64,000 nt of DNA from NCBI GenBank assembly GCA_964646765.1, contig CAZYIA010000001.1:274105-338104 (forward strand). Reading direction: 5' to 3'. A model generated the notes under the pieces. The model saw only the letters and a program-made list of their open reading frames with translations. It searched no databases and was not told the origin of the DNA. The translations under genes and the position numbers were made by a program. Shown piece after piece: positions 1,124-17,491 of this stretch. This stretch comes from an uncultured Candidatus Saccharibacteria bacterium (GTDB taxonomy: Bacteria > Patescibacteriota > Minisyncoccia > Phycocordibacterales > UBA9973). The first letter of the stretch is position 1. Every line of letters begins with the position of its first letter.

Positions 1124-1639
1124 ATGAAGTCCGATATGACAACAGAAGAGGCTTACCTAAAAGCCTACGATTTGTATAACGATGCCATTTTTAGGTACTG
1201 CCTTTTTGAAACTTCAAACCGCGAGATAGCGCTTGACCTCGCCCAAGACACTTTCATGAAAGTATGGGAGTATCTCCAAGCTGGAAACACTATCGAAAAT
1301 ATGCGGGCATTCCTCTATCGGGTAGCTGGTAACTTAGTTATCGACTATCGCCGAAAGAAAAAGGCGACTTCTCTCGATGCTCTTCTAGATGAAGGTTTCG
1401 ATGTCGGCCACGATGAAAAATCGAAGACCATTGATGTAATTGATGGCCGAAAAGTTATGGAATTAATGAATGAGATTCCTGAAAAGTATCGTGATGTTAT
1501 CATCATGCGATATGTTGAAGACCTTTCAATAAAAGAAATTGCAGAGGTAACTGGCGAAACAGAAAATAATATTTCTGTTCGCTTACACCGCGGACTCGAT
1601 CGAGTTCGTACTCTGGTTGAAGATCAGGAATCAAAATAA
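1124..1639 (+). CDS. ECF-type sigma-70 family RNA polymerase sigma factor
   Basis: 171 aa; region 2 (DLAQDTFMKVWEYL, LYRVAGNLVIDYRRKK) and region 4 HTH (LSIKEIAEVTGETENNISVRLHRG) patterns. Confidence 0.8.
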   Translation: MKSDMTTEEAYLKAYDLYNDAIFRYCLFETSNREIALDLAQDTFMKVWEYLQAGNTIENMRAFLYRVAGNLVIDYRRKKKATSLDALLDEGFDVGHDEKSKTIDVIDGRKVMELMNEIPEKYRDVIIMRYVEDLSIKEIAEVTGETENNISVRLHRGLDRVRTLVEDQESK

Positions 1640-1643
1640 CGAT

Positions 1644-2735
1644 ATGGAAAACTTTACAGAACAACTGAAAAACGCAAAAAATATCCGAATGACGGATACT
1701 GAAAAAGCTCGCATGCGCGAGACGCTGATTTCCCATATGGAAAAGTTTCCGCTTGCTGAAACTACTACCACACAGATTCGTTCCGTACCAAAGACGAGCA
1801 CGGCTTCTCCCTACAGCATCCCTTCAGTATGGAGTGGCGCGGTCTTTCTTCGAATTGCAGCTAGTGCTCTTGCGCTAGTTCTCCTGATTGGATCTTCGGC
1901 AACCTTTGCTTCTGCAAACGCTACTCCGGGTTCTCTTCTCTACCCTGTTCGAATTCACGTAAAAGAAAAAGTTGAACGTGCTCTTATAACTGCTCCAGAG
2001 AAGAAACTTGCATATGACCAAGGACGTATTGAAACTCGTATTTCAGAACTGGAAACTCTAGCTGACACTACGAACCCGGATGATACTGATGCAGTACTCA
2101 CAGCAAAAGCGGCATTTACCGAGAACCTTTCTGACTTCCAAACAACACTCAAAGAAACTGAGAGTTCTGGCCGGTTGGCAGTGAGCGTAAAAACTCGTGA
2201 ACAAGTGCTCGCTCGACTTTCAGCATATGCAGATCCAGTTGCTCCTGTTATGGCAACTATGAGCTTGGCCGCAGCAAAGACTGCTCCAGAAACTGCCGCT
2301 CCTACCCTTATGAAAACTAGCGTAAGAATGGACACAGGAGCTTCTGCTGAAGTAGAAGAAAACCAAGATACACCACTAATACCGGTTACCTCTAGTGACA
2401 AGAAGGAAAAAAATAAACTCAAAGAAAGTATTCATGAACTCTTGAAAGTTGGCCGAGAACAAATCTTGGAAACTGCTCAACGAGACGGAGCTGCTAGTAT
2501 GGAACAGCAATCTCCAGATGTAGAACCAGTAACTGATACGTTATCTGTAAATGAAAACACTGAAGCAACTAGTGAAAACGGAACTGAAGCTACTTCTACA
2601 AGTAATACAAATAACGAAGTTCCTAGATCTTCAAATAGCACAGGAACACCTAAGTCCACCTTGGAAGACTCTTTCAAGAGCACTATAACCGCAAGCGTTA
2701 ACCAATCAGCACCTATCCATACGGTTCCTCGCTAG
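1644..2735 (+). CDS. putative anti-sigma factor (single-pass membrane protein with Thr/Ser/Ala-rich extracytoplasmic tail)
   Basis: Starts 2 nt after sigma stop (track gives alternative TTG start at 1617); short cytoplasmic N-domain, one TM helix (AVFLRIAASALALVLLIGS), long low-complexity C-terminal region; position immediately downstream of ECF sigma. Confidence 0.4.
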   Translation: MENFTEQLKNAKNIRMTDTEKARMRETLISHMEKFPLAETTTTQIRSVPKTSTASPYSIPSVWSGAVFLRIAASALALVLLIGSSATFASANATPGSLLYPVRIHVKEKVERALITAPEKKLAYDQGRIETRISELETLADTTNPDDTDAVLTAKAAFTENLSDFQTTLKETESSGRLAVSVKTREQVLARLSAYADPVAPVMATMSLAAAKTAPETAAPTLMKTSVRMDTGASAEVEENQDTPLIPVTSSDKKEKNKLKESIHELLKVGREQILETAQRDGAASMEQQSPDVEPVTDTLSVNENTEATSENGTEATSTSNTNNEVPRSSNSTGTPKSTLEDSFKSTITASVNQSAPIHTVPR

Positions 2736-2776: not shown

Positions 2777-5578
2777 CTATTCGAGAATACTTTTTAAAAT
2801 ATCTTCAGGAACTTCTTTTGAAGCAGTAGACTCTTTTCGAGAAACATTAGATTCTGGAGAGGTTTCAGAAACTGACTCTGGTGATGAAGTTTCTTCCTTC
2901 GCTAATTCTTGCTCACGGGCTTTTCGCTCCTCTTCTAACTTCTTTTCTTGTTCTAAGGTTCGAGCTTCGGCTTCTTCTGCCGCCTTAAGAGCTTTTTGTT
3001 TTTCTTCTTGCTCAATTTTCACAGCCGCTTCAAGTCGGGCTTTTTCTTGCTGTTCTTTCCGAAGAGCTTCTTCATGGGCTACTTTGAGGGCTTCTGCTTC
3101 TCGTTTCCGTTCTTCTTCGGCCTTACGAACAACTTCTATTTCGAGTGCCTTCTTTTCTGCCTCAAATTTTTGACGCTCCTCTTCCTGCACTCGACGAACT
3201 TTTTCGAGAGCCTCCTGCTTTTCTTTTTCAATTTTTTCTTCAAGTGCTTTCTTTTCTGCCTCAATTCGTTCTTTTTCCTCTTTAGTTTTACGTTCCCGCT
3301 CTAGTGCTTCTTGCTTTTCGCGAAGAAGAGCCTCTTCTTGAGCTGTATGTTTTTCTTCATTAATGGTAGTGGTAGTTGGATCTTCACCACGTAGGACTGG
3401 ATCTATGTTTTTTGGTTCATTAAGTTCAGCTTCCTCGGCAAGTCCAATACCAGCTTGAGAAAGGGCTGTAGCCAGCGTATTTTTTGTTTCTTCTGCTGCT
3501 TCTTTCTTAGGAGTCATGAAAACAGGAGAAGCTACTGTTGGTGCATCTTTTTTAAGTGCAGAAAGCGATATTGTTTCTTGAGGCTTTTCAATAACTGGTT
3601 CAGCTATACCTTCTTGTTCTATCGGCTTTGTAGCAACTGCTGGCTTAGCTGGAGCGCCCATTGTTTTTGAAAGCGCTTGATTTAGGATACTTCGAAGTCC
3701 AGCGGTATCGGGAGCTTTACGTTCTTTTGTTACAGGAACTTTTACTACTCGAGGTGGCGGCGTGCGTGGAAGATCATCTTTTTTTGCTCCATCCGGAGTT
3801 TTTATACTCTGAGGCACTCGAAACGCCGTTTGCACTTGCGGTTGTATTTGTACTTGAGCTTCAGATGGCTTCTTATAAGCCCCTTTCGGTAATGGCATAT
3901 CATCTTTACCAGCCTTAATAACCCCAATAGGCGGCATATCAGGCCGATCTACCACGGGACGAACTTTTGGTCGTTCGCCAGTAGATCCTCCCCAATCACT
4001 CCTTGGTTTCGAAGAACCACCGGTAAATTCAATACCGAGCGCGGCAAGTGCATCGTATGAAATATTATCTTTCTTTTCTTTTGGTGGACGGAACCCTGGT
4101 GCCGGTTCAAGTTCACCTTGCTTAATTTTAAAAAGACATTCTTTACAATAAATTGGCAAACCTGGTTCTGGTTCAAACGGAACGTAAATGGATTTTTTAC
4201 AATTAGTACATTCAGCGCGATATTTGCCAACAGCTTCACTTCCCGCATTTTCTGGGTTACTGGTTCCTTGGCCAGGCACCGTTGAACTCCAACGGTTAAT
4301 TTCCTCCTCTACATCAGTGCGCGAACGAGTATACATGCGGCGTGAAGTATCAATAATATACTGTTCGGTTTCTTTTGATTCGTGCACCTCAAGTGGCGGC
4401 AAGGTTTTTGCTGAAAATGGTCGCGAGGTAACCCCATCCACCATGAGCTTTGCATAAATATGATAGTTCGGAAGGTTTACGAAATCTTCAATGACGAATT
4501 CCGGTTCAAATTCTTTTTCGAGTGCTTCGGCATCTTCTGCGCCAACACGGAAGATGATAATTGTTCCAACGTTACCAAACACGGCATCTTTCACCGCGCT
4601 ACCAGTTTCAGTTTCAAGCTGGGCAACATATTGATGCGCAATAGTAAGACATAAGCGATATTTTCGAGCTTCTGAAAGAATAGAAGCAAATGAATCGGTT
4701 ACGAAGTTTTGGAACTCGTCTACAAAAAGATAAAAGTCTTCACGCTTATTTTCTGGAATGCGCACACGCTCCATAGCGGAAAGCTGAATTTTGGTAATGA
4801 GCATTGCACCAAGAAGTGCTGAGTTATCTTCACCAATACGGCCTTTCGACACATTAACCAGAAAGATTTTTTTCTGGTTCATAATATCGAAAATGTTTAT
4901 AGTTGAACGCTGCTGGCCCACTACGTTACGTACGATATTTGATGAAAGGAATTGACCAACTTTGTTTTGAATCGGCGCAATAGCTTCATTACGAAACTGG
5001 TCACGCCATGCTTCATATTCGTGCACCCAAAAAGCCTTCACCACAGGGTCTTTCAAATTCCCGATGATGTACTGACGATAGTCCTTATCCACTAGCATAC
5101 GCGGAATACCAAGAAGTGTGGTATTAGGCGTATCGAGAAGCGCTAAAATGGTGTTGTTCAAAATATATTCCATTCGAGACGACCATGCGTTCGCCCAAAT
5201 TTTGGTGAAAATTCCCATCAAACCTGAAGCCACCAAGTGTTTATACTTCGGGTCATCAAGTTGCATTGGGTTAAAACCAATTGGAAAATCCGTATCCGCT
5301 GGATTGAGGTATACGACATCTTCTGCACGTTCTTTAGGAACAGCCGTTATGATTTTTTCTACGAGTTCACCGTGCGGATCTACCACACAAACACCTTCAC
5401 CGGTACGGATATTCTGGATAATCATGTTCTCCAGCATCACAGACTTACCGGTACCAGATTTACCAAGCACGTACATGTGCTGGCGTCGGTCTTTACGCTT
5501 AATGCCGAAAACTTGATCCATGCCACGGAAATGTGTCCGGGCAAAATATGTAATGTCCTGGTTTAGTGGAACTTCCAT
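2777..5578 (-). CDS. soluble VirD4/TraG/TraD-like (type IV coupling protein family) P-loop ATPase with long disordered/proline-rich linker, C-terminal CxxC...CxxC zinc ribbon and K/E-rich coiled-coil tail
   Basis: 933 aa; Walker A VLGKSGTGKS followed by VDPHGE (DPKGE-like motif of VirD4/TraG), Walker B YLFVDEFQNF, TIAHQYVAQL (TraG-D_C-like xQSxxQL region); no TM helices; zinc ribbon CTNCKKSIYVPFEPEPGLPIYCKEC encoded around 4125-4225; last ~190 aa are E/K/A/R-rich heptad-like low complexity. Confidence 0.7.
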   Translation of the reverse strand: MEVPLNQDITYFARTHFRGMDQVFGIKRKDRRQHMYVLGKSGTGKSVMLENMIIQNIRTGEGVCVVDPHGELVEKIITAVPKERAEDVVYLNPADTDFPIGFNPMQLDDPKYKHLVASGLMGIFTKIWANAWSSRMEYILNNTILALLDTPNTTLLGIPRMLVDKDYRQYIIGNLKDPVVKAFWVHEYEAWRDQFRNEAIAPIQNKVGQFLSSNIVRNVVGQQRSTINIFDIMNQKKIFLVNVSKGRIGEDNSALLGAMLITKIQLSAMERVRIPENKREDFYLFVDEFQNFVTDSFASILSEARKYRLCLTIAHQYVAQLETETGSAVKDAVFGNVGTIIIFRVGAEDAEALEKEFEPEFVIEDFVNLPNYHIYAKLMVDGVTSRPFSAKTLPPLEVHESKETEQYIIDTSRRMYTRSRTDVEEEINRWSSTVPGQGTSNPENAGSEAVGKYRAECTNCKKSIYVPFEPEPGLPIYCKECLFKIKQGELEPAPGFRPPKEKKDNISYDALAALGIEFTGGSSKPRSDWGGSTGERPKVRPVVDRPDMPPIGVIKAGKDDMPLPKGAYKKPSEAQVQIQPQVQTAFRVPQSIKTPDGAKKDDLPRTPPPRVVKVPVTKERKAPDTAGLRSILNQALSKTMGAPAKPAVATKPIEQEGIAEPVIEKPQETISLSALKKDAPTVASPVFMTPKKEAAEETKNTLATALSQAGIGLAEEAELNEPKNIDPVLRGEDPTTTTINEEKHTAQEEALLREKQEALERERKTKEEKERIEAEKKALEEKIEKEKQEALEKVRRVQEEERQKFEAEKKALEIEVVRKAEEERKREAEALKVAHEEALRKEQQEKARLEAAVKIEQEEKQKALKAAEEAEARTLEQEKKLEEERKAREQELAKEETSSPESVSETSPESNVSRKESTASKEVPEDILKSILE

Positions 5579-5713
5579 TTTCTAATCCGCCTCATAGGAG
5601 AGGTTATTTAAAGTTACCTCACAAGTATACCATACTAGGCAAACGAAAGATGAGTTCTTTGACTCAAAGTTAATTTGTGTGCTTAAATTGACCGAATTTA
5701 AAAAGTGAACTAT

Positions 5714-6247
5714 ATGGAAAAAAACGTGGAATTAAATTTTGACTTAACCTTTGATGAAAGCGTAACAATTTACTTTGAAGAATCTGCGCATTCCTTCAAA
5801 ACAAAGTTTTCAGCTACCTTAATGCTTATGGCTATTGCCCACACCCATTTTCGCGGAAGTATGCACAAGGTACTCCGTAGTATTGATACTATCAACCGTG
5901 CTGATATTTTACTTTCAGGAAAAACAGTTAATGAAATAACGAAAGTAAAAAAATTTTTACGCGCACATAAACTCACAGGAACTACATACCGATACTTACA
6001 TGCGTACTGCTACAACTACTTTGTCGAAAAACCAAAGTTTATACAATACCAATCTTTAGGAGAACCTCATGCAGGTGAACTACTCTTACCGTGTGGTCTC
6101 AGATTTATATCTCTATACCAACAAAACTTACTTATCGAAGTAGAAACCTACTATGAGCAATCACTCATTAAAGACTGGGAATACGAGGAACTCCGGTACC
6201 TCATATATAAAAGTGATTTACGTCCCCATAACCCCCTTTTGAACTAA
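5714..6247 (+). CDS. hypothetical protein (no recognisable domain)
   Basis: ORF track 5705..6247 (GTG), ATG at 5714 (MEKNVELNF...); only plus-strand gene inside the ATPase/Cys-rich locus; followed by a strong terminator. Confidence 0.4.
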   Translation: MEKNVELNFDLTFDESVTIYFEESAHSFKTKFSATLMLMAIAHTHFRGSMHKVLRSIDTINRADILLSGKTVNEITKVKKFLRAHKLTGTTYRYLHAYCYNYFVEKPKFIQYQSLGEPHAGELLLPCGLRFISLYQQNLLIEVETYYEQSLIKDWEYEELRYLIYKSDLRPHNPLLN

Positions 6248-6252
6248 CAAGT

Positions 6253-6287
6253 AACAACCTGCTTTCCTCGGCAGGTTGTTCTTTTTT
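6253..6287. terminator. rho-independent terminator (AACAACCTGC-tttcctcg-GCAGGTTGTT + T6), also abuts stop of minus-strand gene 6286..7950
   Basis: 10-bp perfect stem, 8-nt loop, TCTTTTTT tail. Confidence 0.65.
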
Positions 6288-7950
6288 ATGCAAACGCTTG
6301 GTTATAACAACTTTCGCAGTAGAGAATTTCCGGTCGGTTGGGAGAATATGATGACTCAATTTTTTTATTGCAATTTGCGCATTCTCGAGTGAAGAGCTTA
6401 TTTGGCCCGCGAGCTTTAAATCGGCGCAGGTGTCGACATTCGGGACATTGCCGCGGAAGTGGAATAGAAAGTTTTTTATAGAACGTAAACTCATTTGGAA
6501 TAATGCGATAATTCTTTTTACATTCGGTACACTCAAAAATTTCTTTTACAATCTCGTCCTTTGTTTTGCCAATTGAATCTGATACATCAGCCCAGCTAAT
6601 TGTCGCTTTTCCGAATGTTCCTCGCGGCGTTTCTTCCCACTTAAAACCCTGAGCGAGAGCTTCTTCTTTCGTAAGTGGGTACTCAATCATAGCTGATGAT
6701 TCGTTATAACCGAAAGAAGAAAAAGTAGCCGGATAAAATTCACCATAACTTCCCTCTTGTTTCATTTTTGCTACTATTTCGGAGCGCAACTTTTCATATT
6801 CTTCTGGAGAATATTGCTTATTTAAGATCGTGTTTTTTGCTTTTCGAAAACCAACGCAACCAAAAATATTTTGGGAGTTTGGACAATTCACGGAGTAACC
6901 AACGAACTGAGAGCTCCAACAATAGAATCCGCAAATAACATTGGACCCTTCAATACCAGTATTCATGGTGTTGTAGAGTAACTCCGCTCCACGACCAGCA
7001 GTATTACAGTCCATGCAGTCTTTAGCCCCACGCCAAGCATGTACCGAATAGGCACAATCTTCGGCGTCATACGAATGAAAACAATGGCGATTATTTTTAA
7101 CGTTTGTCATGTAATTCCCAGTCGAATTGTAAACGTTATACACTTCGGCAAATTTTCGTGGCTGATCTTTAATAAACTCTGTAAATTGTTTTCGAAAAGC
7201 CTCTACTCCAGAATGAGTATCGAGACGAAACTCTGCTAACTTTTTTTCGTATTCTTCTTTAGAATATTGTGCATTAAAAATACAGTATTTTTGATTACGA
7301 AGATTAATACAGCCTAAACAATTAGTGCAGCCGCGACAATCCAACAAAAATGCACTATCGGTACATGAGTGGACGCTTTTACAATACTTAATTCCGTATG
7401 AATCATAGCAGTCATCAACTTCGTACGATCGTTCAACCTGTTGGGTAAATGAACAATCGACGAGATCTTTTGAAACTTGAATCCAATATGAGTGAATTGC
7501 ATCTTCATTGTTTGAACTTTCAATAACGAAATAACAATTTTTATTGTCAGCCGCGTAATTCATGTACTCACAATTAACTGCCCGCATAGAAACAAGGCCT
7601 GGTTTTGGCACTTTCATCCATAGTTCATACCACTGATCGAGAAATGGCCGCGATGGATCATAGTCCATAGCGTAATCTGCCCCGCTCCAGTCTTCCGAAA
7701 ACCAACAGTCATAACACCAAACCACATCAGGTTTATTCAGCGAAAACTGACAGATAGTATCTTTTTTACACTTATCACAAGGACGCTTATAAAAACTGCG
7801 TTCGTTGCGAAAATTAAGCCGTAATTGGGATCGGCATTCCGGACATAGTTTTGGCGGCAATACACCTATTTTTTCATAGAAGGAAAAATCATCAGGTTCG
7901 ATAACAAATTCACTATTACATTTAGTGCAAAATCGATTTTCTGTCGCCAT
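6286..7950 (-). CDS. large cysteine-rich multi-zinc-ribbon protein, paralog A (function unknown)
   Basis: 554 aa, ~45 Cys, no signal peptide/TM; N-terminal ribbon CTKCNSEFVIEPDDFSFYEKIGVLPPKLCPECRSQ; two internal Cys-rich modules ending in ...CLGCINLRNQKYCIFNAQYSKEEYEKK and ...FGCVGFRKAKNTILNKQYSPEEYEKL; C-terminal tandem ribbons CTECKKNYRIIPNEFTFYKKLSIPLPRQCPECRH and CANCNKKIESSYSPNRPEILYCESCY. Confidence 0.7.
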   Translation of the reverse strand: MATENRFCTKCNSEFVIEPDDFSFYEKIGVLPPKLCPECRSQLRLNFRNERSFYKRPCDKCKKDTICQFSLNKPDVVWCYDCWFSEDWSGADYAMDYDPSRPFLDQWYELWMKVPKPGLVSMRAVNCEYMNYAADNKNCYFVIESSNNEDAIHSYWIQVSKDLVDCSFTQQVERSYEVDDCYDSYGIKYCKSVHSCTDSAFLLDCRGCTNCLGCINLRNQKYCIFNAQYSKEEYEKKLAEFRLDTHSGVEAFRKQFTEFIKDQPRKFAEVYNVYNSTGNYMTNVKNNRHCFHSYDAEDCAYSVHAWRGAKDCMDCNTAGRGAELLYNTMNTGIEGSNVICGFYCWSSQFVGYSVNCPNSQNIFGCVGFRKAKNTILNKQYSPEEYEKLRSEIVAKMKQEGSYGEFYPATFSSFGYNESSAMIEYPLTKEEALAQGFKWEETPRGTFGKATISWADVSDSIGKTKDEIVKEIFECTECKKNYRIIPNEFTFYKKLSIPLPRQCPECRHLRRFKARGPNKLFTRECANCNKKIESSYSPNRPEILYCESCYNQAFA

Positions 7951-7968
7951 TTTTCGATTCTAGCACGC

Positions 7969-9756
7969 TTACAAATAACGTGCCTGGTAACAGCTCTCGC
8001 AGTAAATAGTTTCTGGCTTTTCTGGGGCATAGGTCGTTTCAAATTCGTTTGAGCACGCTCCAGAATGCTGGTGACCAGTTTCATCACACTGACACTTTCG
8101 GTGCCATAATTTCATCGGACCCCGAGAACGGAGACGCATGTAATGACGACAGTTTGGGCAAAGGCTAGGTAATGGCAAGCCAAGTCGTTTATAAAACTGG
8201 AGTTCCTGTGGCACTAGGCGAAACGCTTTCGAACATAAATGTCCTTCACAGGCACCTTGGTGGGCGCATTCGATAACTTCGTTTAAAATAGTACTTTCAT
8301 TTACTTCAGACAGTGAATTTGGAACAGTATCTTTACTCATCGTAATGGTATAAGACTTTTCTTCTGGTTCTTTCCAAGTAAAACCCTGGGCCAAGGCTTC
8401 TTCTTTTGAGAGTGGGTAGTAATCAAAAGCAATAGTTTCGTTGTAGGCAAACGGCGAAAGTTCAGCCGGGAAAAATTCTCCAAACTTGTATACTCTTCCC
8501 TTTCCATCTTGGTACGGCATGGCATTCATGTGCTCAATAATCTTCGGCACAAGTTTTTCGTATTCTTCTTTGGTATAGCGCTTGTTTAAAATCGAGTAAC
8601 TACCATTCTTCACTCCGACACAACCAAAGCAATTCTGGTTCGATGGTGAGTTGTAGAGATACATTGAGTTTGTCGATGACTTTGCATAAATGCAGAACGA
8701 AACATTTTGACAGCCTGAGAACACGCCAAACGAGTCATAAATGAGCTCAGAACCATGACCAGCATGTGAAGCGTTTCGAGCATCTTTTATATCACCGCCT
8801 GAAAGAAAGAAGTTTTTTAAATCTTCTGAACCAGGAACTAAATCAAAACAGTTAATACAGTTTTTAGCATTGGCAATATTATCACCGGTGCAATTAACTG
8901 ATTTAATAATGTGGGCGAAACGATGCGGAAACGTCAGCTTAAATTCCTCAAATTGCTTACGGACTTTTTCTAAGCCTAGACGAGTATCAAGCTTCAGTTC
9001 TTTTGCCTTCGCTTCATATTCTTCTTTTGAATATTCTTGGTTAAAAATGCAGTGCGATTTATTGCGGAGCGAAACACAACCAATACAGTTGTCACAATTT
9101 ACACAGTCATACAGAAACGTTGAATCCGAACAGCTTTTACAATATTGACCATAGCGAAGCTTGTAACATTCTTGCGAATCAGTACACTCGTAGCACAAAT
9201 TACATTTCTCAACCAAATATAAATCCTGACTATCACGAGAATGCATATTAAAAGTACTGTAGGAGCAATCTTCATTGTAGTCACCACCAAAAACGAGATA
9301 GCAATTTTTATTACTCTCAGTACAGTTACAGTAATCACTATTCACCGCATTCCAGTTCATGAGCGAAGGCCACGGCACTTCGCGAATTAGTTCCTTGAGT
9401 TGTTCAAAAAACGGCTTTGAAAAATCAACATCTTTGCCATAGCTATATGGATCCCAGCCATCACCCCACCAATATTCGCGATCATAAACCGTTAGTGGCT
9501 TGTCGTCAGAATAGATAGAGATTATTTTTTGACCTTCTTTTCCGGGGGCGTTATCAGTACGTCGATACAGAACATTTTGGTTGCGAAACACCATGCGGCG
9601 CACGAACTGACATTCTGGACACCAAGTTGGTGGCGGCACTTTCATTTTCTGATAAAAGGCTAAATCATCCGCATCCAACAAAAATATCTTACTGCAATTT
9701 TTACAGGCAACTTCCATATGCCTATAGTACTCAAAAATGCTCCGTATACAAACCAA
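7969..9756 (-). CDS. large cysteine-rich multi-zinc-ribbon protein, paralog B (function unknown)
   Basis: 595 aa (true start may be MEVACKNCSK at 9717); same architecture as 6286..7950: N-terminal ribbon CKNCSKIFLLDADDLAFYQKMKVPPPTWCPECQF, internal modules ...CIGCVSLRNKSHCIFNQEYSKEEYEAK and ...CFGCVGVKNGSYSILNKRYTKEEYEKL, C-terminal ribbons CSKAFRLVPQELQFYKRLGLPLPSLCPNCRH and CSNEFETTYAPEKPETIYCESCY. Confidence 0.7.
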   Translation of the reverse strand: MVCIRSIFEYYRHMEVACKNCSKIFLLDADDLAFYQKMKVPPPTWCPECQFVRRMVFRNQNVLYRRTDNAPGKEGQKIISIYSDDKPLTVYDREYWWGDGWDPYSYGKDVDFSKPFFEQLKELIREVPWPSLMNWNAVNSDYCNCTESNKNCYLVFGGDYNEDCSYSTFNMHSRDSQDLYLVEKCNLCYECTDSQECYKLRYGQYCKSCSDSTFLYDCVNCDNCIGCVSLRNKSHCIFNQEYSKEEYEAKAKELKLDTRLGLEKVRKQFEEFKLTFPHRFAHIIKSVNCTGDNIANAKNCINCFDLVPGSEDLKNFFLSGGDIKDARNASHAGHGSELIYDSFGVFSGCQNVSFCIYAKSSTNSMYLYNSPSNQNCFGCVGVKNGSYSILNKRYTKEEYEKLVPKIIEHMNAMPYQDGKGRVYKFGEFFPAELSPFAYNETIAFDYYPLSKEEALAQGFTWKEPEEKSYTITMSKDTVPNSLSEVNESTILNEVIECAHQGACEGHLCSKAFRLVPQELQFYKRLGLPLPSLCPNCRHYMRLRSRGPMKLWHRKCQCDETGHQHSGACSNEFETTYAPEKPETIYCESCYQARYL

Positions 9757-9782: not shown

Positions 9783-11246
9783 CTAGATTAGCGGCTCAGC
9801 GACTTCTACTTTTTCAGCAGGCGCTCCTCCACCATCAGATTTATTACCACGAGTAATAGCCGCTTTTTCTTGAGCAGAACGAATGATGGTTGCTTCTTCT
9901 TCGGCAATAAGTTTCTTGGCGGCGTCGGCTGAGATAGCAAATTTACGACGAGAAGCTTCAATAATTTTTGTGCGAAGTGATCCATGAGCAGCTGGCAATA
10001 CTTTCAACGTTTCAGCAGAAAATGGATCATATGATTCACCGTCGATAGTCATTTTAACGTAAAACTCTCCCACACCGAGGTTAATCATATCTTTTACATC
10101 GAAAATCGGAGCAAATTCTGGTTTGAGTTTTACGGCATCATCACCACCCACGCGGAAACAGATAATAGAACCAACGTTACCGAGCACGGCTTGAGCAACA
10201 CGTGGTGTCAGCTGACCAACGTATTGGTGCGCTACCGTAAGGTTAATAGAATATTTACGCGCCTCAGAAAGAATGTTTTCGAAAGTATCGGTCACCACGT
10301 TTTGGAACTCATCCACATAGAGATAAAAATCGTAGCGCTTGTCGTGTGGAATTTTTGCTCGCGCCATACCAGCTTGCTTAATTTTGGTCAGGAACATTGC
10401 ACCGAAGAACGAAGAGTTTTCTTCACCAATCTTACCCTTACAAATGTTGATGAGCACAATTTTTTTGTTGTTCATCAGCCATTCAATGTCAATTTTGTTT
10501 TCCTTCTGGCCGAAAATGTTACGGAGCATCGGATCAGAAAGAAATTGCCCGAGTTTGTTAACAAGCGGGATAATAGCGTCGGTATCAAATTTTTCCGACC
10601 AGTCGGCGAATTCGATTGCCCAGAAGCGCTTCACCATATCGTCTTCAATGTACTCAACCACTTTTTGACGATAGTTACGGTCGGTAAGCATCGAAATCAT
10701 TCCGCGCATGGTTGCGTATGGATAGTCGAGAAGCGCGAGTGTGGTAAAGCGGAACACGTGCTCAAGACGCGGCGTCCAGTTAGCACCGAATTGCTTTTCC
10801 AACACTTCAATCAAACCTTGGGTTAGTTGGTGTTTGAATGCGGGGTCAACGTTAGCGAGCGGATTAAATGAGGCCGGATAGTCCATGTCAGACGGATCGA
10901 TGATGCATACGTCTTCCATACGGTTCTCTGGAATAAAGTCGAGAATGTCATCAATAAATTCTCCGTGCGGGTCGATGACACAAATGCCGTGGCCATAGGC
11001 AACATCCTGGCGCACCATCAGTTCCTGGAGTTTTGATTTTCCCACACCAGACTTCCCTACAATGTAGAGGTGGCGGCGGCGGTCAACGCGTTTAATACCA
11101 AAAACGTATTTCTTTTCTTCGAGAGCGGCCACATAGTTGGTGCGGCCGATAAATGACGCGTCTTCTGGAGGCACTTTACCAAACTCCGGCAGTTCTGTCG
11201 GTGGCGGCGCGTATTTAATTATTTGAATCTTATTCGCTCGTGCCAT
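9783..11246 (-). CDS. soluble VirD4/TraG/TraD-like P-loop ATPase (paralog of 2777..5578 N-terminal 480 aa, no C-terminal extension)
   Basis: 487 aa; IVGKSGVGKS, IDPHGE, YLYVDEFQNV, TVAHQYVGQL, GNVGSIICFRVGGDD - same motif order and spacing as the 933-aa protein. Confidence 0.7.
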   Translation of the reverse strand: MARANKIQIIKYAPPPTELPEFGKVPPEDASFIGRTNYVAALEEKKYVFGIKRVDRRRHLYIVGKSGVGKSKLQELMVRQDVAYGHGICVIDPHGEFIDDILDFIPENRMEDVCIIDPSDMDYPASFNPLANVDPAFKHQLTQGLIEVLEKQFGANWTPRLEHVFRFTTLALLDYPYATMRGMISMLTDRNYRQKVVEYIEDDMVKRFWAIEFADWSEKFDTDAIIPLVNKLGQFLSDPMLRNIFGQKENKIDIEWLMNNKKIVLINICKGKIGEENSSFFGAMFLTKIKQAGMARAKIPHDKRYDFYLYVDEFQNVVTDTFENILSEARKYSINLTVAHQYVGQLTPRVAQAVLGNVGSIICFRVGGDDAVKLKPEFAPIFDVKDMINLGVGEFYVKMTIDGESYDPFSAETLKVLPAAHGSLRTKIIEASRRKFAISADAAKKLIAEEEATIIRSAQEKAAITRGNKSDGGGAPAEKVEVAEPLI

Positions 11247-13670: not shown

Positions 13671-13768
13671 AATGGGCTTTAGTATACCCTAGGGAGCAAA
13701 TGGAAGCATGTGGAGAAAACACGCCACAACTACAGCATAAAAGACCTGGTAATAAACTTTTTAGAGAG

Positions 13769-13839
13769 TCGGGGTGCCGAGAATCGAACTCGGTTCTCAC
13801 GAACCCGAATCGTGCATACTACCGGTGTACTACACCCCG
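13769..13839 (-). tRNA. tRNA-Pro (anticodon CGG)
   Basis: Manual fold: acceptor CGGGGUG/CACCCCG with C1:G72 (typical bacterial tRNA-Pro), U8A9, D-stem GUAC/GUAU, anticodon stem CACGA/UCGUG, loop UUCGGGU, T-arm CCGAG-UUCGAUU-CUCGG, discriminator A. Confidence 0.8.
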
Positions 13840-13944
13840 AGACGAAGAGGAGAATACCACATTTCATGTATTTTATCAGCTGAAATTGTCGTCAGGGATA
13901 TTTTCTGTCTTTGTGGTCACAAATATTTTTCCTGACGGAAAAAT

Positions 13945-14048
13945 TTCGCGACCCCGGCTCGCGGTTTTTGCCTTTCGCTACGCTCAAACAAAAACATCGT
14001 TCCGCCTTCCACATGTACGCAAAAATCCCCAGTAGTGGGGATTTTTGG
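13945..14048. repeat. conserved tRNA-flanking element copy A (approx. 100 nt, two hairpins; possible sRNA or tRNA 3' trailer); ends in hairpin 14021..14046
   Basis: Homologous to 15116..15200 and 22322..22414: shared 5' ttcgcgaccccgg hairpin and 3' ..tcCG.CtTCCAC....C-AAAAA-TCCCCA-gtag-TGGGGA-TTTTT; lies 7 nt from 3' end of tRNA-Ala(UGC). Confidence 0.55.
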
Positions 14049-14053
14049 TCATG

Positions 14054-14126
14054 TGGACCCTAGCGGATTCGAACCGCTGACCTCCTCTTTGCAAAAGAGG
14101 CGCTCTACCAACTAAGCTAAGGGCCC
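14054..14126 (-). tRNA. tRNA-Ala (anticodon UGC)
   Basis: Manual fold: acceptor GGGCCCU/AGGGUCC with G3:U70 Ala identity pair, D-stem GCUU/GAGC, anticodon stem CCUCU/AGAGG loop UUUGCAA, T-arm AGCGG-UUCGAAU-CCGCU, discriminator A. Confidence 0.85.
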
Positions 14127-14196
14127 AAATAAAGTTGTACGGGTATCTAAATGTATTCTCCTGAACTTTTTTGTTAGTAGAGCGCCTACGGCGGCT

Positions 14197-14226
14197 TTCC
14201 TCTCTACTTGCCAACTAAGCTAAGGG
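14197..14226 (-). repeat. duplicated 5' fragment of tRNA-Ala(UGC) (acceptor 5' strand + D-arm), tRNA remnant
   Basis: ccaactaagctaagggcccaaat is an exact copy of 14108..14130; downstream part diverges and includes an inverted copy of the anticodon-stem region (gtagagcgcc). Confidence 0.6.
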
Positions 14227-14317
14227 CCCAAATGAAGCTCTAACGGCACTATAGTACCGCATTTCGGCTATTTCGCAAGTATTTTTGGCATATTTTATGG
14301 TAAGCTAATGCATCAGT

Positions 14318-15016
14318 ATGAAGAACCTAGAGCCAAATTCAGGGAAACAGCTCACTATTAACGTACAAGGAATAAACTACGCCCGTTTTCCAGTTAAAAC
14401 TCCTGTCATTAAAAGTGGTGATGATGTTGCTGCTATTCTTAAAAATCTTGTATACAGTGAACTTCAACCTGGCGACACCCTTTTCATCAGCGAAAAAATT
14501 ATCGCTATTTCTCAAGGCCGAGCGTTTAAAATTTCGGATATTCATCCGAGTGCCTTGGCTAACTTTCTGGTTCGATTCGTACATAAATCCAAGTATGGCA
14601 TTGGCTTAGGCTCACCCTGGACAATGGAGCTCGCTCTACGTGATGTTGGTGCTCCACGAATTTTATTTGCTGCCTTTTGTGCTGCTTTAACAAAACCATT
14701 TGGTATAAAAGGAGTTTTCTATCATGTAGCTGGAAAGGATGTAAATGCAATTGATGGCCCATGCGACTATACCCTTCCACCATATAATGAGTACGCAAAA
14801 CTTGGACCCAAAAAACCTAACGAAGAAGCAAAAAAGATCTCAGGTGCGCTTAATGTACCAGTTGTTATCATTGATGCCAACGACCTTGGGGTAAACATTC
14901 TTGGCCGATCATCAAAAGAAATATCTCTTGATTGGGCAAAAGCAATCTTCAAAGACAACCCACTTGGCCAGGCTTCACAACAAACCCCTGCAGCAATCGT
15001 TAGAAAAACAAAATAG
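14318..15016 (+). CDS. CofE/F420-0:gamma-glutamyl ligase-like family protein
   Basis: 232 aa; TLFISEKIIAISQGRA and GIGLGSPW segments resemble the F420-ligase (PF01996-type) fold; assignment from memory of family pattern only. Confidence 0.4.
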   Translation: MKNLEPNSGKQLTINVQGINYARFPVKTPVIKSGDDVAAILKNLVYSELQPGDTLFISEKIIAISQGRAFKISDIHPSALANFLVRFVHKSKYGIGLGSPWTMELALRDVGAPRILFAAFCAALTKPFGIKGVFYHVAGKDVNAIDGPCDYTLPPYNEYAKLGPKKPNEEAKKISGALNVPVVIIDANDLGVNILGRSSKEISLDWAKAIFKDNPLGQASQQTPAAIVRKTK

Positions 15017-15018
15017 TT

Positions 15019-15032
15019 GACCGCACCGGACT
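15019..15032. repeat. 14-nt direct repeat of the 3' end of tRNA-Ala(GGC) (gaccgcaccggact = 15210..15223)
   Basis: Exact 14-nt match 190 bp from the tRNA 3' end, immediately after the stop of the CofE-like gene. Confidence 0.55.
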
Positions 15033-15115
15033 TTCTGCCTACCGCAGAATCGTGTATCACGAATCACTAAGCATAATTCTTCTCCGTCAGTCGACAGATC
15101 GAATTCTGCAAAGTG

Positions 15116-15200
15116 TTCGCGACCCCGCCTCGTCTGTCGCATTGCGACATGGCTCCGGCCTCCACAAGTATCAAAAAATCCCAAGCAGTTGGGATTTTTC
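15116..15200. repeat. conserved tRNA-flanking element copy B; ends in hairpin 15173..15199
   Basis: ttcgcgaccccgcctcg...ctCCGGCCTCCACaagtatc-AAAAAA-TCCCAA-gcag-TTGGGA-TTTTT; 8 nt from 3' end of tRNA-Ala(GGC). Confidence 0.55.
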
Positions 15201-15207
15201 TCTCTAG

Positions 15208-15280
15208 TGGACCGCACCGGACTTGAACCGGTCACCTCTCCCATGCCATGGGAACGCTCTACCAGATGAGCTAGCGGCCC
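15208..15280 (-). tRNA. tRNA-Ala (anticodon GGC)
   Basis: Manual fold: acceptor GGGCCGC/GCGGUCC with G3:U70, D-stem GCUC/GAGC, anticodon stem UUCCC/GGGAG loop AUGGCAU, T-arm ACCGG-UUCAAGU-CCGGU, discriminator A. Confidence 0.8.
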
Positions 15281-16249: not shown

Positions 16250-17491
16250 CTATTTAAGAAAAGCCTGGCCGCGTTTCTTTTTATGGAACGTAATTGCAAA
16301 ACGGTGTGCTTCGGCATTTGCTAAAATAATCGCCTTTTGCTGTTTAGTACTAAATTCTGTAAGCCCTAATATTTCTCGCGGTTTATGATGTTCATCTTTC
16401 ACTACTGAAACGACTGGAATAGTGAGCTGAAATCGCTTAAGCACCTGCTCACCTACTCGCTTTTGAGCTACACCACCATCCATCACAACAATATCTGGCA
16501 TTCCCCACTCACTATGGCGAAAACGGCGAGAGAGAACTTCTTCAAGTGCCCCAACATCATTACTCTTTTCTTGGCTTTGGATAATAAATTTTCGATACTC
16601 TGCTTTATCAATTTCTCCGTCCGTGATTACCGTCATAACACCAACCATGTTTTTGCCGCTCATGTGTGCAATATCGTAGGCCTCGATACGAATATGCGCT
16701 GTGCGAGGATCACGAAAATTTTCATTTTTAATGAGTGCTGTATCGTTAATATGCTTGAGAGCAAAAATTTGGTCTCGAACACGAGCAGCCTCCTCAAACC
16801 GATGTTCTTTTGAAAACGATTTCATATCTCGCTCGAGTGTTCGAACAATATTCCCTTTTTTGCCAGAAAAAAATAATTTCAGATTACGAATATTTTTTCG
16901 GTACGCCTTTACCGCTTCTTCATTTGAGATGTCAGGATTGAGCCCAACTTGGCGATAAAATTCATAATTGTCTTGGCGAGCCGACTGACCATCCATAAAT
17001 GGGAAAATACGGCGAATAATTTTTATCGCTTCTTTAAACTGCCCACCAGAAGTAAATGGACCATACACAGTATCTATTTCAACGTGCTCAAGCGATTCAG
17101 GTACAATTCCTTCTTCATATTTTTCTAAGTCACGACCACGAACAGTAAGGACTCGGGGTAATTCTTCTTTTGTAATGACAATATAATTCCAGCTCTTATC
17201 ATCTTTTTCTTTAACGTTGTAATACGGCAAATGACGCTTGATGAGCGCTGCTTCGAGAATAAGAGCTTCGAGTACCGTTTCAGTTTCTTGCCACTCAATT
17301 TTCGTAGCCTTAAATACCATGTCCACGATCATTGGTCCGCGAGTGTTAATAAGGTCGCTGGCAAAATAACTCCGTGTACGCTCACGAAGCGACGTTGCTT
17401 TTCCAATATACAGAATCTCCTTCCCTTTTTTGAAGAAGTACACACCTGGTACATTAGGAAGTTTACATTTTGCGAGCTGTTCTATCGTCAC
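16250..17491 (-). CDS. uvrC: excinuclease ABC subunit C, short form (GIY-YIG + RNase H-like endonuclease domains, no C-terminal HhH)
   Basis: 413 aa; GIY-YIG block GVYFFKKGKEILYIGKATSLRERTRSYF at N-terminus; C-terminal PDIVVMDGGVAQKRV...IPVVSVVKDEHHK matches UvrC endonuclease domain. Confidence 0.65.
   Translation of the reverse strand: MTIEQLAKCKLPNVPGVYFFKKGKEILYIGKATSLRERTRSYFASDLINTRGPMIVDMVFKATKIEWQETETVLEALILEAALIKRHLPYYNVKEKDDKSWNYIVITKEELPRVLTVRGRDLEKYEEGIVPESLEHVEIDTVYGPFTSGGQFKEAIKIIRRIFPFMDGQSARQDNYEFYRQVGLNPDISNEEAVKAYRKNIRNLKLFFSGKKGNIVRTLERDMKSFSKEHRFEEAARVRDQIFALKHINDTALIKNENFRDPRTAHIRIEAYDIAHMSGKNMVGVMTVITDGEIDKAEYRKFIIQSQEKSNDVGALEEVLSRRFRHSEWGMPDIVVMDGGVAQKRVGEQVLKRFQLTIPVVSVVKDEHHKPREILGLTEFSTKQQKAIILANAEAHRFAITFHKKKRGQAFLK

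Follow-up and report, generated by a model that had tools for sequence, protein, structure and literature searches.

Genes A and B, two adjacent cysteine-rich genes in the 64-kb stretch of DNA analyzed here (the window), are probably ancient, Patescibacteria-restricted paralogs, each encoding a duplicated, zinc finger-flanked double-solenoid scaffold that works with TraD/VirD4-type ATPases. The functional part of this proposal draws on gene neighborhood, a domain shared with the ATPases, and residue chemistry.

Genes A and B and their internal duplication

The two genes belong to a cassette that starts with a short and ends with a long ATPase gene:

9783..11246, minus strand: short ATPase, first gene of the cassette; soluble TraD/VirD4/HerA-like P-loop ATPase of 487 aa, Walker A at residue 64
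7969..9717, minus strand: gene B, 582 aa when read from the ATG at 9717; a paralog that shares the architecture of A except for the second N-terminal finger, which is lost
6286..7950, minus strand: gene A, ORF of 554 aa; zinc-finger pair, solenoid modules 1 and 2, conserved linker, zinc-finger pair
2777..5578, minus strand: long ATPase, last gene of the cassette; soluble, TraD/VirD4-like, 933 aa, Walker A at residue 39

The original prediction, made from the sequence without database searches, placed two neighboring minus-strand reading frames at 6286-9756. Both are present, but the start codon of B is most likely the ATG at 9717 and not the TTG at 9756: the 582-aa form is 100% identical to a database protein of the same length (P0121), and the gene call in locus L083 has the same start. 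A and B align over their full length with 39% identity (E 2e-138) and are thus paralogs. Both are as cysteine-rich as initially described, with 36 Cys among the 554 residues of A (6.5%) and 37 among 595 in B (6.2%, counted on the 595-aa ORF), and the peptides quoted in the prediction were all located (A211, A363, B224, B376, B151 and B183, the B positions in 595-aa numbering). A TM-like or signal-like hydrophobic segment was found in neither protein (maximum 19-residue Kyte-Doolittle mean of 1.03 or less), so that A and B are predicted to be soluble and cytoplasmic, consistent with the earlier assignment.

By sequence comparison, each protein consists of two homologous modules of approximately 150 residues. 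Modules 1 and 2 match each other both within and between A and B (BLAST E values of 2e-12 to 3e-16), and their family profiles align over 138 columns with an hhalign probability of 99.8% (E 1.2e-29), which makes the proposed internal duplication real. The N-terminal and C-terminal zinc-finger pairs, a feature absent from the original prediction, are also mutually homologous (E 2e-22). The core of the two proteins is laid out as follows:

7216..7665, minus strand: A module 1, residues 96-245; a helix, a beta-solenoid with ~12-residue coils made of [N/D]-[C/S]-x triplets, the C-cap and a helix
6757..7215, minus strand: A module 2, residues 246-398; homolog of module 1, C-cap FGCVGxRxxxxxILNKQYSxEEYE
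6541..6756, minus strand: A linker, residues 399-470; conserved YGEFFPxxxSxFGYNE...PLTKEEAxxxGFxW, then a variable stretch
8980..9432, minus strand: B module 1, residues ~96-246; beta-bridges at each third residue (DSSP string of the B model)
8518..8979, minus strand: B module 2, residues ~247-400; from module comparison and the B model

The general module cap, ...GCVxLRNKxYCI(F/L)NxQYSKEEYE followed by a helix, takes the form GC(I/V)xLRNxxYCIFNxQYSKEEYE, again with a helix behind it, in module 1 of A, which is acidic (pI 4.8). The entropy of the A linker is 1.74 bits for residues 399-440 compared to 2.61 bits for residues 441-470.

The predicted solenoid modules and their cysteines

Cysteines of the modules had been described as recurring every 15-20 residues; the actual period is 3 (spacings of 3, 6, 9, 12, 15, 21 and 27), with autocorrelation peaks at all multiples of 3 and a profile super-period that is strongest at 12. 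In module 1, the cysteines fall into a single triplet phase, 11 of 11 in A (p 1.7e-5) and 14 of 15 in B (p 6.5e-6). Phase 0 is rich in Asn (21%) and Asp (17%), phase 1 is dominated by Cys (33%) and Ser (20%), followed by Leu, Val and Thr, and phase 2 is a mix of polar and aromatic residues. The AlphaFold (AF2) models of A (pLDDT 84.7, pTM 0.86; module 1 at moderate confidence, pLDDT 57-72) and B (pLDDT 90.2, pTM 0.90) both contain isolated beta-bridges at each third residue across the modules, in agreement with the repetitive solenoid suggested originally. The modules are predicted to form two thin beta-solenoids with about four triplets (12 residues) per coil, the coil length and the inward or outward orientation of residues being read from sequence periodicity and DSSP strings.

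The repeat of the Tenebrio molitor antifreeze protein (TmAFP) is TCTxSxxCxxAx. TmAFP (PDB 1ezg), along with 1m8n and 3ult, is a thin beta-solenoid, and these are the closest solved folds: A and B likewise have coils of ~12 residues, small inward Cys or Ser residues at each third position, often preceded by Asn or Asp, and a Cys-dense cap. However, TmAFP is a secreted, disulfide-stabilized eukaryotic protein with a Thr ladder for ice, whereas A and B are bacterial and predicted to be cytoplasmic, have replaceable cysteines, and combine two solenoid copies with zinc fingers in one chain. The two are analogous in fold, homology not being demonstrable at an identity of 14% or less. The left-handed beta-helix (hexapeptide-repeat) acyltransferases and gamma-carbonic anhydrases, with 18-residue triangular coils, [LIV]-G-x4 repeats and trimeric active sites, differ from A and B, whose periods are 3 and 12 and whose conserved residues include no catalytic ones; no Hexapep match in Pfam was obtained for A, B or 72 relatives.

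The behavior of the cysteines was assessed in 550 non-redundant homologs, in an alignment (A1) that pools the A-type and B-type subfamilies and hence may blur subfamily-specific sites. Modules contain between 3 and 20 Cys; in most of the solenoid Cys columns, Cys makes up 10-55% of the residues and alternates with Ser, Val, Thr, Leu or Ala; and the presence of Cys is weakly correlated between module columns (phi of 0.47 or less, compared to 0.97-0.99 for the optional zinc finger of the same proteins). Judging from these statistics, the solenoid cysteines look like small inward-packing residues that are preferred in each triplet, rather than metal ligands, and the conserved cysteine pairs expected of TmAFP-like intra-coil disulfides were not found in the A/B family. 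One coil stands apart:

7309..7338, minus strand: terminal CX2CX2CX2C coil of module 1, residues 205-214 of A, defined by regex and homolog columns

The Cys frequencies of this coil among the homologs are 0.85, 0.87, 0.95 and 0.87 and, when C196 is included, CCCCC is the dominant pattern. Capping module 1, this conserved coil may hold a metal within a single coil or act as a structural staple.

The multi-metal-site scaffold of the original prediction, that is, modules with a Cys-lined interior holding a row of Zn, Fe or Fe-S centers for storage, electron transfer or redox sensing, appears improbable. Such an arrangement would accommodate the high Cys content, the preference for Cys at all inward-facing triplet positions, and the conserved coil at the close of module 1, joined by C196 and often by C223, where four inward thiols within 12 residues could in principle make a Cys4 site; furthermore, Patescibacteria are mostly anaerobes. 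Yet, outside residues 196-214, the cysteines are replaced one at a time, their number per module varies widely, the all-or-none covariation that marks a real finger in the same proteins is absent, and the counterpart coil of module 2 has degenerated to C-S-L/C-C, with two of the four Cys lost. Neither the radical-SAM spacing CX3CX2C nor the ferredoxin spacing CX2CX2CX3C(P), both of which had been reported missing, was detected in A or B by regex, the only hit being the CX2CX2CX2C at residue 205, and A, B and the 72 relatives yielded no Fer4 or Radical_SAM match in Pfam.

Terminal zinc fingers and the flanking ATPases

The solenoid core is bracketed by zinc fingers, one of which recurs in the long ATPase:

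7801..7935, minus strand: N-terminal finger of A, residues 6-50; CxxC-x24-CxxC (C8, C11, C36, C39), then an Arg-rich helix
7696..7785, minus strand: optional second N-terminal finger of A, residues 56-85; CxxC-x17-CxxC (C58, C61, C79, C82), found by regex; not in B
6289..6540, minus strand: C-terminal finger pair of A, residues 471-554; CxxC-x24-CxxC (474-505) and CxxC-x17-CxxC (524-548)
7972..8271, minus strand: C-terminal finger pair of B, residues ~483-582; variant with an insertion and extra Cys/His
4127..4222, minus strand: finger of the long ATPase, residues 453-484; CxxC-x17-CxxC, a homolog of the final finger in A and B

The four Cys of the N-terminal finger of A are retained as CCCC in 505 of the 550 homologs, and those of the two C-terminal fingers, which form a basic pair (pI 9.2), in 478 (474-505) and 536 (524-548). 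The optional finger is present in ~52% of the homologs, its four Cys coming and going together. A regex search found the x24 spacing at A8, A474 and B5 and the exact x17 spacing in the last finger of A (C524-C527-x17-C545-C548). These are the spacings of zf_Tbcl (PF13451) and zf_Tbcl_2 (PF23477, TIGR04272), respectively, although the matches of A itself are weak: residues 6-42 score 20.4 bits against PF13451 (E 4.9e-4; cut-off 24), and residues 519-551 score 16.9 bits against PF23477 (cut-off 27) and 13.2 against TIGR04272 (NCBIfam cut-off 36), the latter two models giving no match for B. Among 72 family members, 25 match PF13451 (best E 2.5e-6) and 23 match the PF23477/TIGR04272 domain at E<0.1 (best 5.5e-6). 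In the known examples, which have no assigned role, these domains stand alone as small proteins or are attached as short appendages, unlike the present proteins, in which 3-4 finger copies surround a solenoid core of ~350 residues that lies outside all database models. [quoted passage not shown]

The finger of the long ATPase scores above the cut-off for PF23477 (33.4 bits against 27), matches the C-terminus of A directly (BLAST E 7e-6), and is found at about residue 450 in 11 of 17 long ATPases from related loci; in the window, it precedes an E/K/P-rich low-complexity tail of ~450 aa. The short ATPase has neither a zinc finger nor a TM segment and matches DUF87, T4SS-DNA_transf, TrwB_AAD_bind and TraG-D_C in Pfam; the long one matches TrwB_AAD_bind (58.2 bits) and TraG-D_C. 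Together, the two score 58.2 and 30.1 bits against PF10412 (cut-off 20.5) and 35.8 and 24.2 bits against PF12696 (cut-off 22), and fall far below the cut-offs of the NCBIfam equivalogs. With intact Walker A (GKSGxGKS) and Walker B (YLxVDE) motifs, they share the P-loop domain and the TraG-D_C region with the type IV coupling proteins VirD4, TraD and TrwB and with HerA/FtsK-type translocases. Unlike the coupling proteins, they lack the N-terminal membrane anchor (maximum 19-residue Kyte-Doolittle means of 1.17 and 1.29, with Walker A close to the N-terminus), as do 36 of 37 related ATPases, which are devoid of any TM-like segment; the long ATPase possesses instead the zinc finger and the low-complexity tail. 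No Pfam match to T4SS (VirB4-type) or relaxase families was obtained for the 34 window proteins scanned, a part of the ORFs of the window, among which the Pfam-matched proteins are housekeeping ones; neither does any T4SS or relaxase family recur in 82 related loci. The window ATPases thus fit the 'orphan T4CP homologues' of Patescibacteria, most of which have no known role and for which exaptation has been suggested (PMC12102498).

The ATPase is the only recurrent neighbor family of the A/B-type genes, with 42 genes in 27 of the 82 loci, an estimate of linkage that may be biased by the selection of the ~80 loci for similarity to A and B; the next family, a housekeeping one, appears in at most 9 loci. 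The order short ATPase, a variable number of Cys-rich genes, long ATPase is found in the window and in loci L016, L018 and L058, and short-class ATPases are located upstream of arrays in other genomes as well. Direct adjacency is far from universal: an ATPase gene adjoins the array at 12 of 89 upstream boundaries and at 9 of 91 downstream ones.

Family range and possible function

More than 6394 homologs of A were identified (58-87% identity among the top 120), and clustering at 50% identity divides the family into over 5000 groups; wherever the source is named, it belongs to the ultra-small Patescibacteria, to which the family appears to be restricted. Homology to a characterized family, named at the outset as evidence against the original prediction, was not found: the solenoid core has no relatives in Pfam, NCBIfam, PHROG, PADLOC or PDB, and the family includes no characterized member. 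The DnaJ cysteine-rich domain was rejected considering that A and B lack the CX2CXGXG motif and that A, B and 72 relatives have no PF00684 match. Family genes form co-oriented tandem arrays of up to 9-10 paralogs, and 34 of the 65 fully contained runs are single genes. Within a locus, the best paralog has a median identity of 42%, whereas the best match from a different genome reaches 58%, and for 99% of the genes the closer relative lies in a different genome; by these identities, the array paralogs, A and B included, diverged anciently.

This antiquity bears on the quite improbable possibility that A and B are secreted effectors, recruited by the flanking ATPases as type IV coupling proteins for delivery into host cells by a patescibacterial T4SS. 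The coupling-protein families matched by the ATPases, and the tandem multigene arrays in which effector repertoires typically occur, would fit this scenario, and the basic, Arg-rich C-terminus is loosely reminiscent of T4SS signals; the mostly orphan status of patescibacterial T4CP homologues (PMC12102498) is compatible with it, too. However, the membrane anchor of canonical coupling proteins is missing, a secretion system or relaxase is not in evidence among the scanned window proteins, the ATPase is not adjacent to most arrays, and the paralogs, which are orthologous across classes at 50-87% identity, are unlike fast-evolving effectors. Very unlikely, too, is a self-assembling cytoskeletal or filament element with end-to-end stacked solenoids of the kind seen in bactofilin or curli: conserved helices and the cap motif at both module ends, with fingers around them, would normally block such stacking, and the pTM values of 0.86-0.90 suggest a closed globular assembly. 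An ice-binding or antifreeze-type protein is suggested by the antifreeze solenoids of insects and plants, which are the closest solved folds, but is hardly credible for modules that sit between zinc fingers and show genetic linkage to ATPases, that have no signal peptide and negligible identity to these solenoids, and in which the outward Thr-x-Thr ladder is absent, Thr being unenriched in the outward phases 0 and 2.

Conservation across the family falls on metal ligands and on structural cap residues that occur in duplicate (Tyr, Asn, Gly, Pro), with no catalytic set among them; for this reason, a non-enzymatic adaptor or scaffold appears the most likely role of A/B-type proteins. As such a scaffold, A and B would bind nucleic acid or a partner protein through their basic, Arg-rich fingers and cooperate with the soluble hexameric ATPases of the TraD/VirD4 type whose genes mark the cassette ends, the anciently diverged paralogs probably being non-redundant subunits or specificity adaptors of the ATPase system.

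Domain architecture of the cysteine-rich paralogs

The two Cys-rich paralogs, denoted A and B, lie side by side, with a TraD-like ATPase gene downstream:

6286..7950, minus strand: gene A, 554-aa ORF
7969..9717, minus strand: gene B, with an ATG start at 9717; ORF as listed 7969..9756, with a TTG start
2777..5578, minus strand: long TraD-like ATPase, consisting of an ATPase domain, a zinc finger and a ~450-residue low-complexity tail

We take B to span 7969..9717 because the ATG at 9717 is the start of the identical 582-aa database protein P0121 and of an independent gene call in a related locus (L083), and fits the family N-terminus. A contains 36 Cys residues (6.5%) and B contains 37 (6.2%, in the 595-aa listed ORF); the two share 39% identity across their entire length (E 2e-138), and all peptides quoted in the original prediction are found in these ORFs. 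Neither TM-like nor signal-like segments were detected in A, B, the long ATPase or the short ATPase encoded on the other side of B (19-residue hydropathy maximum <=1.29).

Each protein contains two internal modules (residues ~96-245 and ~246-398 in A). Their predicted origin by duplication is confirmed by BLAST comparison of module 1 with module 2, both within each protein and between A and B (E 2e-12 to 3e-16), and by alignment of the family profiles of the two modules (hhalign probability 99.8%, E 1.2e-29, 138 columns). A module comprises a helix (PFFEQFxEL..VP), a repetitive stretch, a cap (GCVxLRNKxYCI(F/L)NxQYSKEEYE) and a second helix. Homology (E 2e-22) also links the Cys cluster at the N-terminus (~1-95) to that at the C-terminus (~465-554). 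From these two sets of homologies, the architecture can be described as finger pair, module, module, conserved linker and finger pair, with exact finger spacings of CxxC-x24-CxxC (at A8, A474 and B5) and CxxC-x17-CxxC (at A58 and A524). Domains of the latter type bind Zn, as measured by ICP-MS, in small proteins of Methanosarcina mazei (PMC12704099).

Module 1 is acidic (pI 4.7-4.8) and the C-terminal fingers, which contain conserved Arg, are basic (pI 8.4-9.2). The positions conserved throughout the family are the metal ligands along with Tyr, Asn, Gly and Pro residues of the duplicated caps and the linker (for example, Q106, P115, Y140, N226/N377, Y380, G403, Y415, N416 and R506). Because no obvious catalytic constellation is discernible among these positions, a binding or scaffold role is favored.

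A predicted solenoid and the roles of the cysteines

The Cys residues of the modules had been predicted to recur every 15-20 residues; the real period is 3. In a 50-sequence alignment, all Cys-bearing columns of module 1 have the same residue number modulo 3, and a single phase accounts for 11 of the 11 module-1 Cys in A (p 1.7e-5) and 14 of the 15 in B (p 6.5e-6). The autocorrelation of Cys or Cys plus Ser occupancy is positive at all multiples of 3 and negative elsewhere. Across 550 non-redundant homologs, phase 0 of the triplet is dominated by Asn (21%) and Asp (17%), followed by Tyr, Phe and Gly; phase 1 by Cys (33%) and Ser (20%), followed by Leu, Val and Thr; and phase 2 is a mix of polar and aromatic residues. 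Over multiples of 3, the autocorrelation of the whole profile peaks at lag 12, with the next values at 15 and 24, and the maximum at 12 implies coils of about four triplets.

The AlphaFold2 models built with family alignments have a pLDDT of 84.7 and a pTM of 0.86 for A, with module 1 at just 57-72, and 90.2 and 0.90, respectively, for B. In the model of B, DSSP assigns the pattern 'E--E--E--E...' over ~100 residues of module 1, with every third residue in a beta-bridge, and the structural matches of this model include hexapeptide-repeat enzymes. Taken together with the periods of 3 and 12, this pattern supports a thin beta-solenoid as the predicted fold class, so that the initial guess of a repetitive solenoid was correct. 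A specific homolog was not found: Foldseek yielded no match in the PDB at E<0.001, and PDB sequence searches with protein A and the family profile gave nothing significant, the best match being LIM-like (E 0.2) and confined to the C-terminal fingers. The closest analogy is the Tenebrio molitor antifreeze protein (TmAFP), with its 12-residue coil and an inward-facing Cys, Ser or Ala at each third residue. To our knowledge, A and B would be the first cytoplasmic bacterial TmAFP-like solenoid with a 12-residue, Cys/Ser-lined coil, here fused to zinc fingers. As modeled, these proteins combine two known kinds of structural elements, a beta-solenoid and zinc fingers.

The Cys residues of the fingers and those of the solenoid differ in their roles, judging from statistics on 596 homologs that were aligned to the family HMM and thinned to 550 at <80% identity. 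The finger residues are nearly invariant, with CCCC retained at C8/11/36/39 in 505 of the 550 homologs, at C474/477/502/505 in 478 and at C524/527/545/548 in 536. About half of the family, B not included, has the second N-terminal finger (C58/61/79/82), which is gained or lost as a unit (phi 0.97-0.99), a covariation that serves as an internal positive control for how a metal site would be expected to behave in these data. The solenoid columns are mostly 10-55% Cys, with single exchanges for Ser, Val, Thr, Leu or Ala, and the number of solenoid Cys varies from 3 to 20 per module among homologs. These columns are weakly correlated (phi <=0.47), and the correlation appears to be phylogenetic because it mostly involves distant column pairs. 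The solenoid Cys are most readily understood as the small residue favored at the buried position of each triplet.

Such single replaceability, variable number and weak correlation argue against a multi-metal scaffold, the other reading originally offered for the modules. As to an Fe-S scaffold, the motifs CX3CX2C and CX2CX2CX3C are absent from A and B, in line with the earlier statement that radical-SAM and ferredoxin motifs are lacking. The DnaJ-type motif CX2CXGXG is absent as well. A point in favor of a metal in the modules is an exception to the above pattern: C196 and C205-x2-C208-x2-C211-x2-C214, in the last coil of module 1, show Cys frequencies of 0.78-0.95, and the equivalent coil of module 2 reads C-S-L/C-C. 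The CX2CX2CX2C coil may be a metal site, and this candidate is the strongest residual uncertainty of our interpretation. Elsewhere in the modules, the family appears to be a clean case of 'cysteine-rich' not meaning 'metal-rich'.

A Patescibacteria-specific family in ancient tandem arrays

A and B belong to a large family that is restricted to Patescibacteria. In word-seeded searches, more than 6394 relatives of A and more than 7655 relatives of B were counted among 8000 candidates, and the top 120 show 58-87% identity to A and 47-77% to B, apart from P0121, which is B itself (100%). An exhaustive profile search covering 1.84 billion 50%-identity representatives retrieved 5073 proteins at E<=1e-3 and 2241 at E<=1e-30, the best matches being nearly all full-length proteins of 540-600 aa. 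The informative source names are Patescibacteria lineages throughout (Paceibacteria, Nomura-, Wolfe-, Lipton-, Staskawicz-, Harrison-, Uhr-, Jorgensen-, Sungii-, Gracili-, Peregrini- and Peribacteria), together with one MAG labelled Burkholderiales.

The annotation is 'hypothetical protein' in every case. A clear homology to a characterized family, which would contradict the original prediction, was sought, and the family core has no relative in Pfam, NCBIfam, PHROG, PADLOC or the PDB. For A, B and 72 relatives, Pfam and NCBIfam gave only weak matches to the fingers; PADLOC defense models and PHROGs gave none for A or B; and literature searches on the domain names and on such a family in CPR yielded no description of it. 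The tblastn search of A against 50,697 phage records produced no match and the short ATPase had only four distant matches in phage records, so an origin from phages or mobile elements was rejected. Among the tblastn matches in GTDB species genomes, those exceeding 1.7 kb, initially considered as possible inteins or insertions, run on into the adjacent paralog.

We collected 79 loci from GTDB species genomes, to which three earlier loci and the window were added, and scanned their ORFs using HMMs for the family and for the ATPases that flank it. More than one family copy is present in 59 of the 83 loci, with co-oriented arrays of up to 9-10 genes (9 in 17 kb in L015, about 10 in L028 and 8 in L077), and one 840-kb contig (loci L001 and L044) carries at least 7 copies in two arrays. 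The median identity is 42% to the best paralog in the same locus and 58% to the best match from a different genome, and for 99% of the genes the closest relative is found in another genome rather than in their own array. Array members therefore represent conserved orthologous subfamilies, and a recent lineage-specific expansion of the arms-race type is rejected.

On the 840-kb contig, which belongs to Minisyncoccia, a five-gene array is broken at 7040..7948 (minus strand) of locus L001 by a pair of small genes on the opposite strand, encoding 193 aa (no Pfam match) and 88 aa (weak PQ-loop match).

Association with soluble ATPases and possible functions

When all ORFs of the loci were clustered, the only recurrent neighbor family was the TraD/VirD4-like ATPase (42 genes, in 27 of the 82 related loci); the next families, scattered housekeeping genes (MreB, AtpD, DnaJ, FtsW, FtsE), occur in at most 9 loci each. 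An ATPase is found within ±10 kb in 33% of cases versus a few percent by rough chance, the latter being our own estimate from the counts in PMC12102498, which locus selection may bias. Soluble ATPases related to type IV coupling proteins (T4CPs) are thus enriched near the family. The linkage is partial: an ATPase directly adjoins array runs at 12 of 89 upstream and 9 of 91 downstream boundaries. In the window, a 487-aa short ATPase is followed by B, A and a 933-aa long ATPase, an order also seen in L016, L018 and L058.

The ATPases fall mainly into a short class (~480-520 aa, Walker A at ~64, no finger) and a long class (~600-930 aa, Walker A at ~40), with CxxC-x15-19-CxxC at ~450 in 11 of 17 long-class members; 36 of 37 ATPases lack a TM segment. 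The finger of the long ATPase scores above the PF23477 cut-off and can be aligned to the final finger of A (E 7e-6), such that the two proteins share this domain. In PHROG and PADLOC, the ATPases match only phrog_5156, of unknown function, and, weakly, mad8 and HerA. The tail of the long ATPase is Pro/Lys/Glu/Ala-rich, and at its end E/K/R repeats make up an extended charged region (EEKERIEAEKKALEEK...) resembling a single alpha-helix or coiled coil; among the long-class ATPases (~600 to 933 aa), tail length varies greatly between genomes. ATPases of a third kind (747-909 aa, Walker A at 333-513, no zinc finger; L073, L082, L050, L044 and L012) adjoin some arrays, mostly in MAGs of Peribacteria and Gracilibacteria; the L012 member contains a TM-like segment and could be a canonical T4CP with a membrane anchor.

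We infer that A and B could be non-enzymatic adaptors or scaffolds, with the basic fingers binding nucleic acid or a partner, that would work with the ATPases, each paralog serving as a non-redundant subunit or a specificity factor. The structural part of this explanation is very probably correct; the ATPase-adaptor part is tentative, and the combined statement somewhat favored. The proteins could alternatively, with low probability, be effectors of a type IV secretion system (T4SS), as the kinship of the neighboring ATPases to coupling proteins might suggest; no match to T4SS, relaxase or phage families was detected among the window proteins scanned. Filament formers and, given the analogy with TmAFP, ice-binding proteins are further, very unlikely alternatives.

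A more specific form of the adaptor proposal, which we consider rather improbable, is that the Cys-rich paralogs and both soluble ATPase classes, the short one without a finger and the long one with the shared CxxC-x17-CxxC finger, form one Patescibacteria-specific cytoplasmic machine. Up to ~10 ancient, non-redundant zinc-finger solenoid adaptors would load nucleic acid or specific clients onto a hexameric translocase, and the CX2CX2CX2C coil would be a metal site of a new kind, where the four thiols of one 12-residue solenoid turn converge on one ion. If true, such a machine would explain the role of thousands of 'orphan T4CP homologues' in reduced genomes.

A and B represent an uncharacterized, highly conserved, Patescibacteria-specific family whose predicted architecture is unusual and whose genomic association is informative. 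Many Patescibacteria, with genomes of about 1 Mb or less, keep several 1.7-kb copies, up to 9-10 in a row, or 1-2% of the genome, and these are ancient paralogs, each 50-87% identical across classes. That streamlined genomes keep them to this degree suggests that their cellular function is important and specific to the lineage. Patescibacterial genomes encode about two T4CP homologues each, of which 148 of 5713 are located near virB4, and exaptation has been suggested (PMC12102498); the link described here is a concrete lead on the thousands of homologues without a nearby T4SS, the puzzle raised in that work.

The window itself is core chromosome, encoding a Mur ligase, PBPs, MraW, aminoacyl-tRNA synthetases, PurA, IMPDH, UvrA, UvrC and DprA. 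Several features surround the cassette:

5705..6247, plus strand: orphan ORF, 180 aa, in the 707-nt gap between A and the long ATPase
1124..2735, plus strand: ECF-type sigma-70 factor (171 aa), then, overlapping, a DUF5667 protein (372 aa)
13768..15280, minus strand: three tRNA genes (Pro-CGG, Ala-UGC, Ala-GGC) within 1.5 kb, around the CofE-like ORF
14318..15016, plus strand: CofE-like protein, 232 aa, with a PF01996 match over residues 26-83 only (218-position model)
16250..17491, minus strand: UvrC, 413 aa, with GIY-YIG, UVR and RNase H-like domains
18742..21363, minus strand: UvrA, 873 aa

The orphan ORF has no match in Pfam, NCBIfam, PHROG or PADLOC and no counterpart in the 82 related loci, so we do not regard it as part of the system. 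It is called as a 177-aa gene in the independent assembly L083 and may be a lineage-specific orphan gene or no gene; the interrupting genes of L001 resemble it in position and are unrelated in sequence. In an Rfam scan of the whole 64-kb window, 5 tRNAs alone reach the threshold, and the 707-nt gap contains no RNA element. The CofE-like protein is a fragmentary or highly divergent relative of F420-0:gamma-glutamyl ligase, in a bacterium not expected to make F420. A C-terminal HhH region was not detected in UvrC, and both UvrC and UvrA are shorter than their typical bacterial counterparts, which fits the domain loss common in reduced genomes. The genes at 1124..2735, which lie directly downstream of the cassette and on the opposite strand, are likely a sigma/anti-sigma pair, and an ECF sigma factor is also encoded ~2 kb from the two Cys-rich paralogs of an Uhrbacteria locus (L003).
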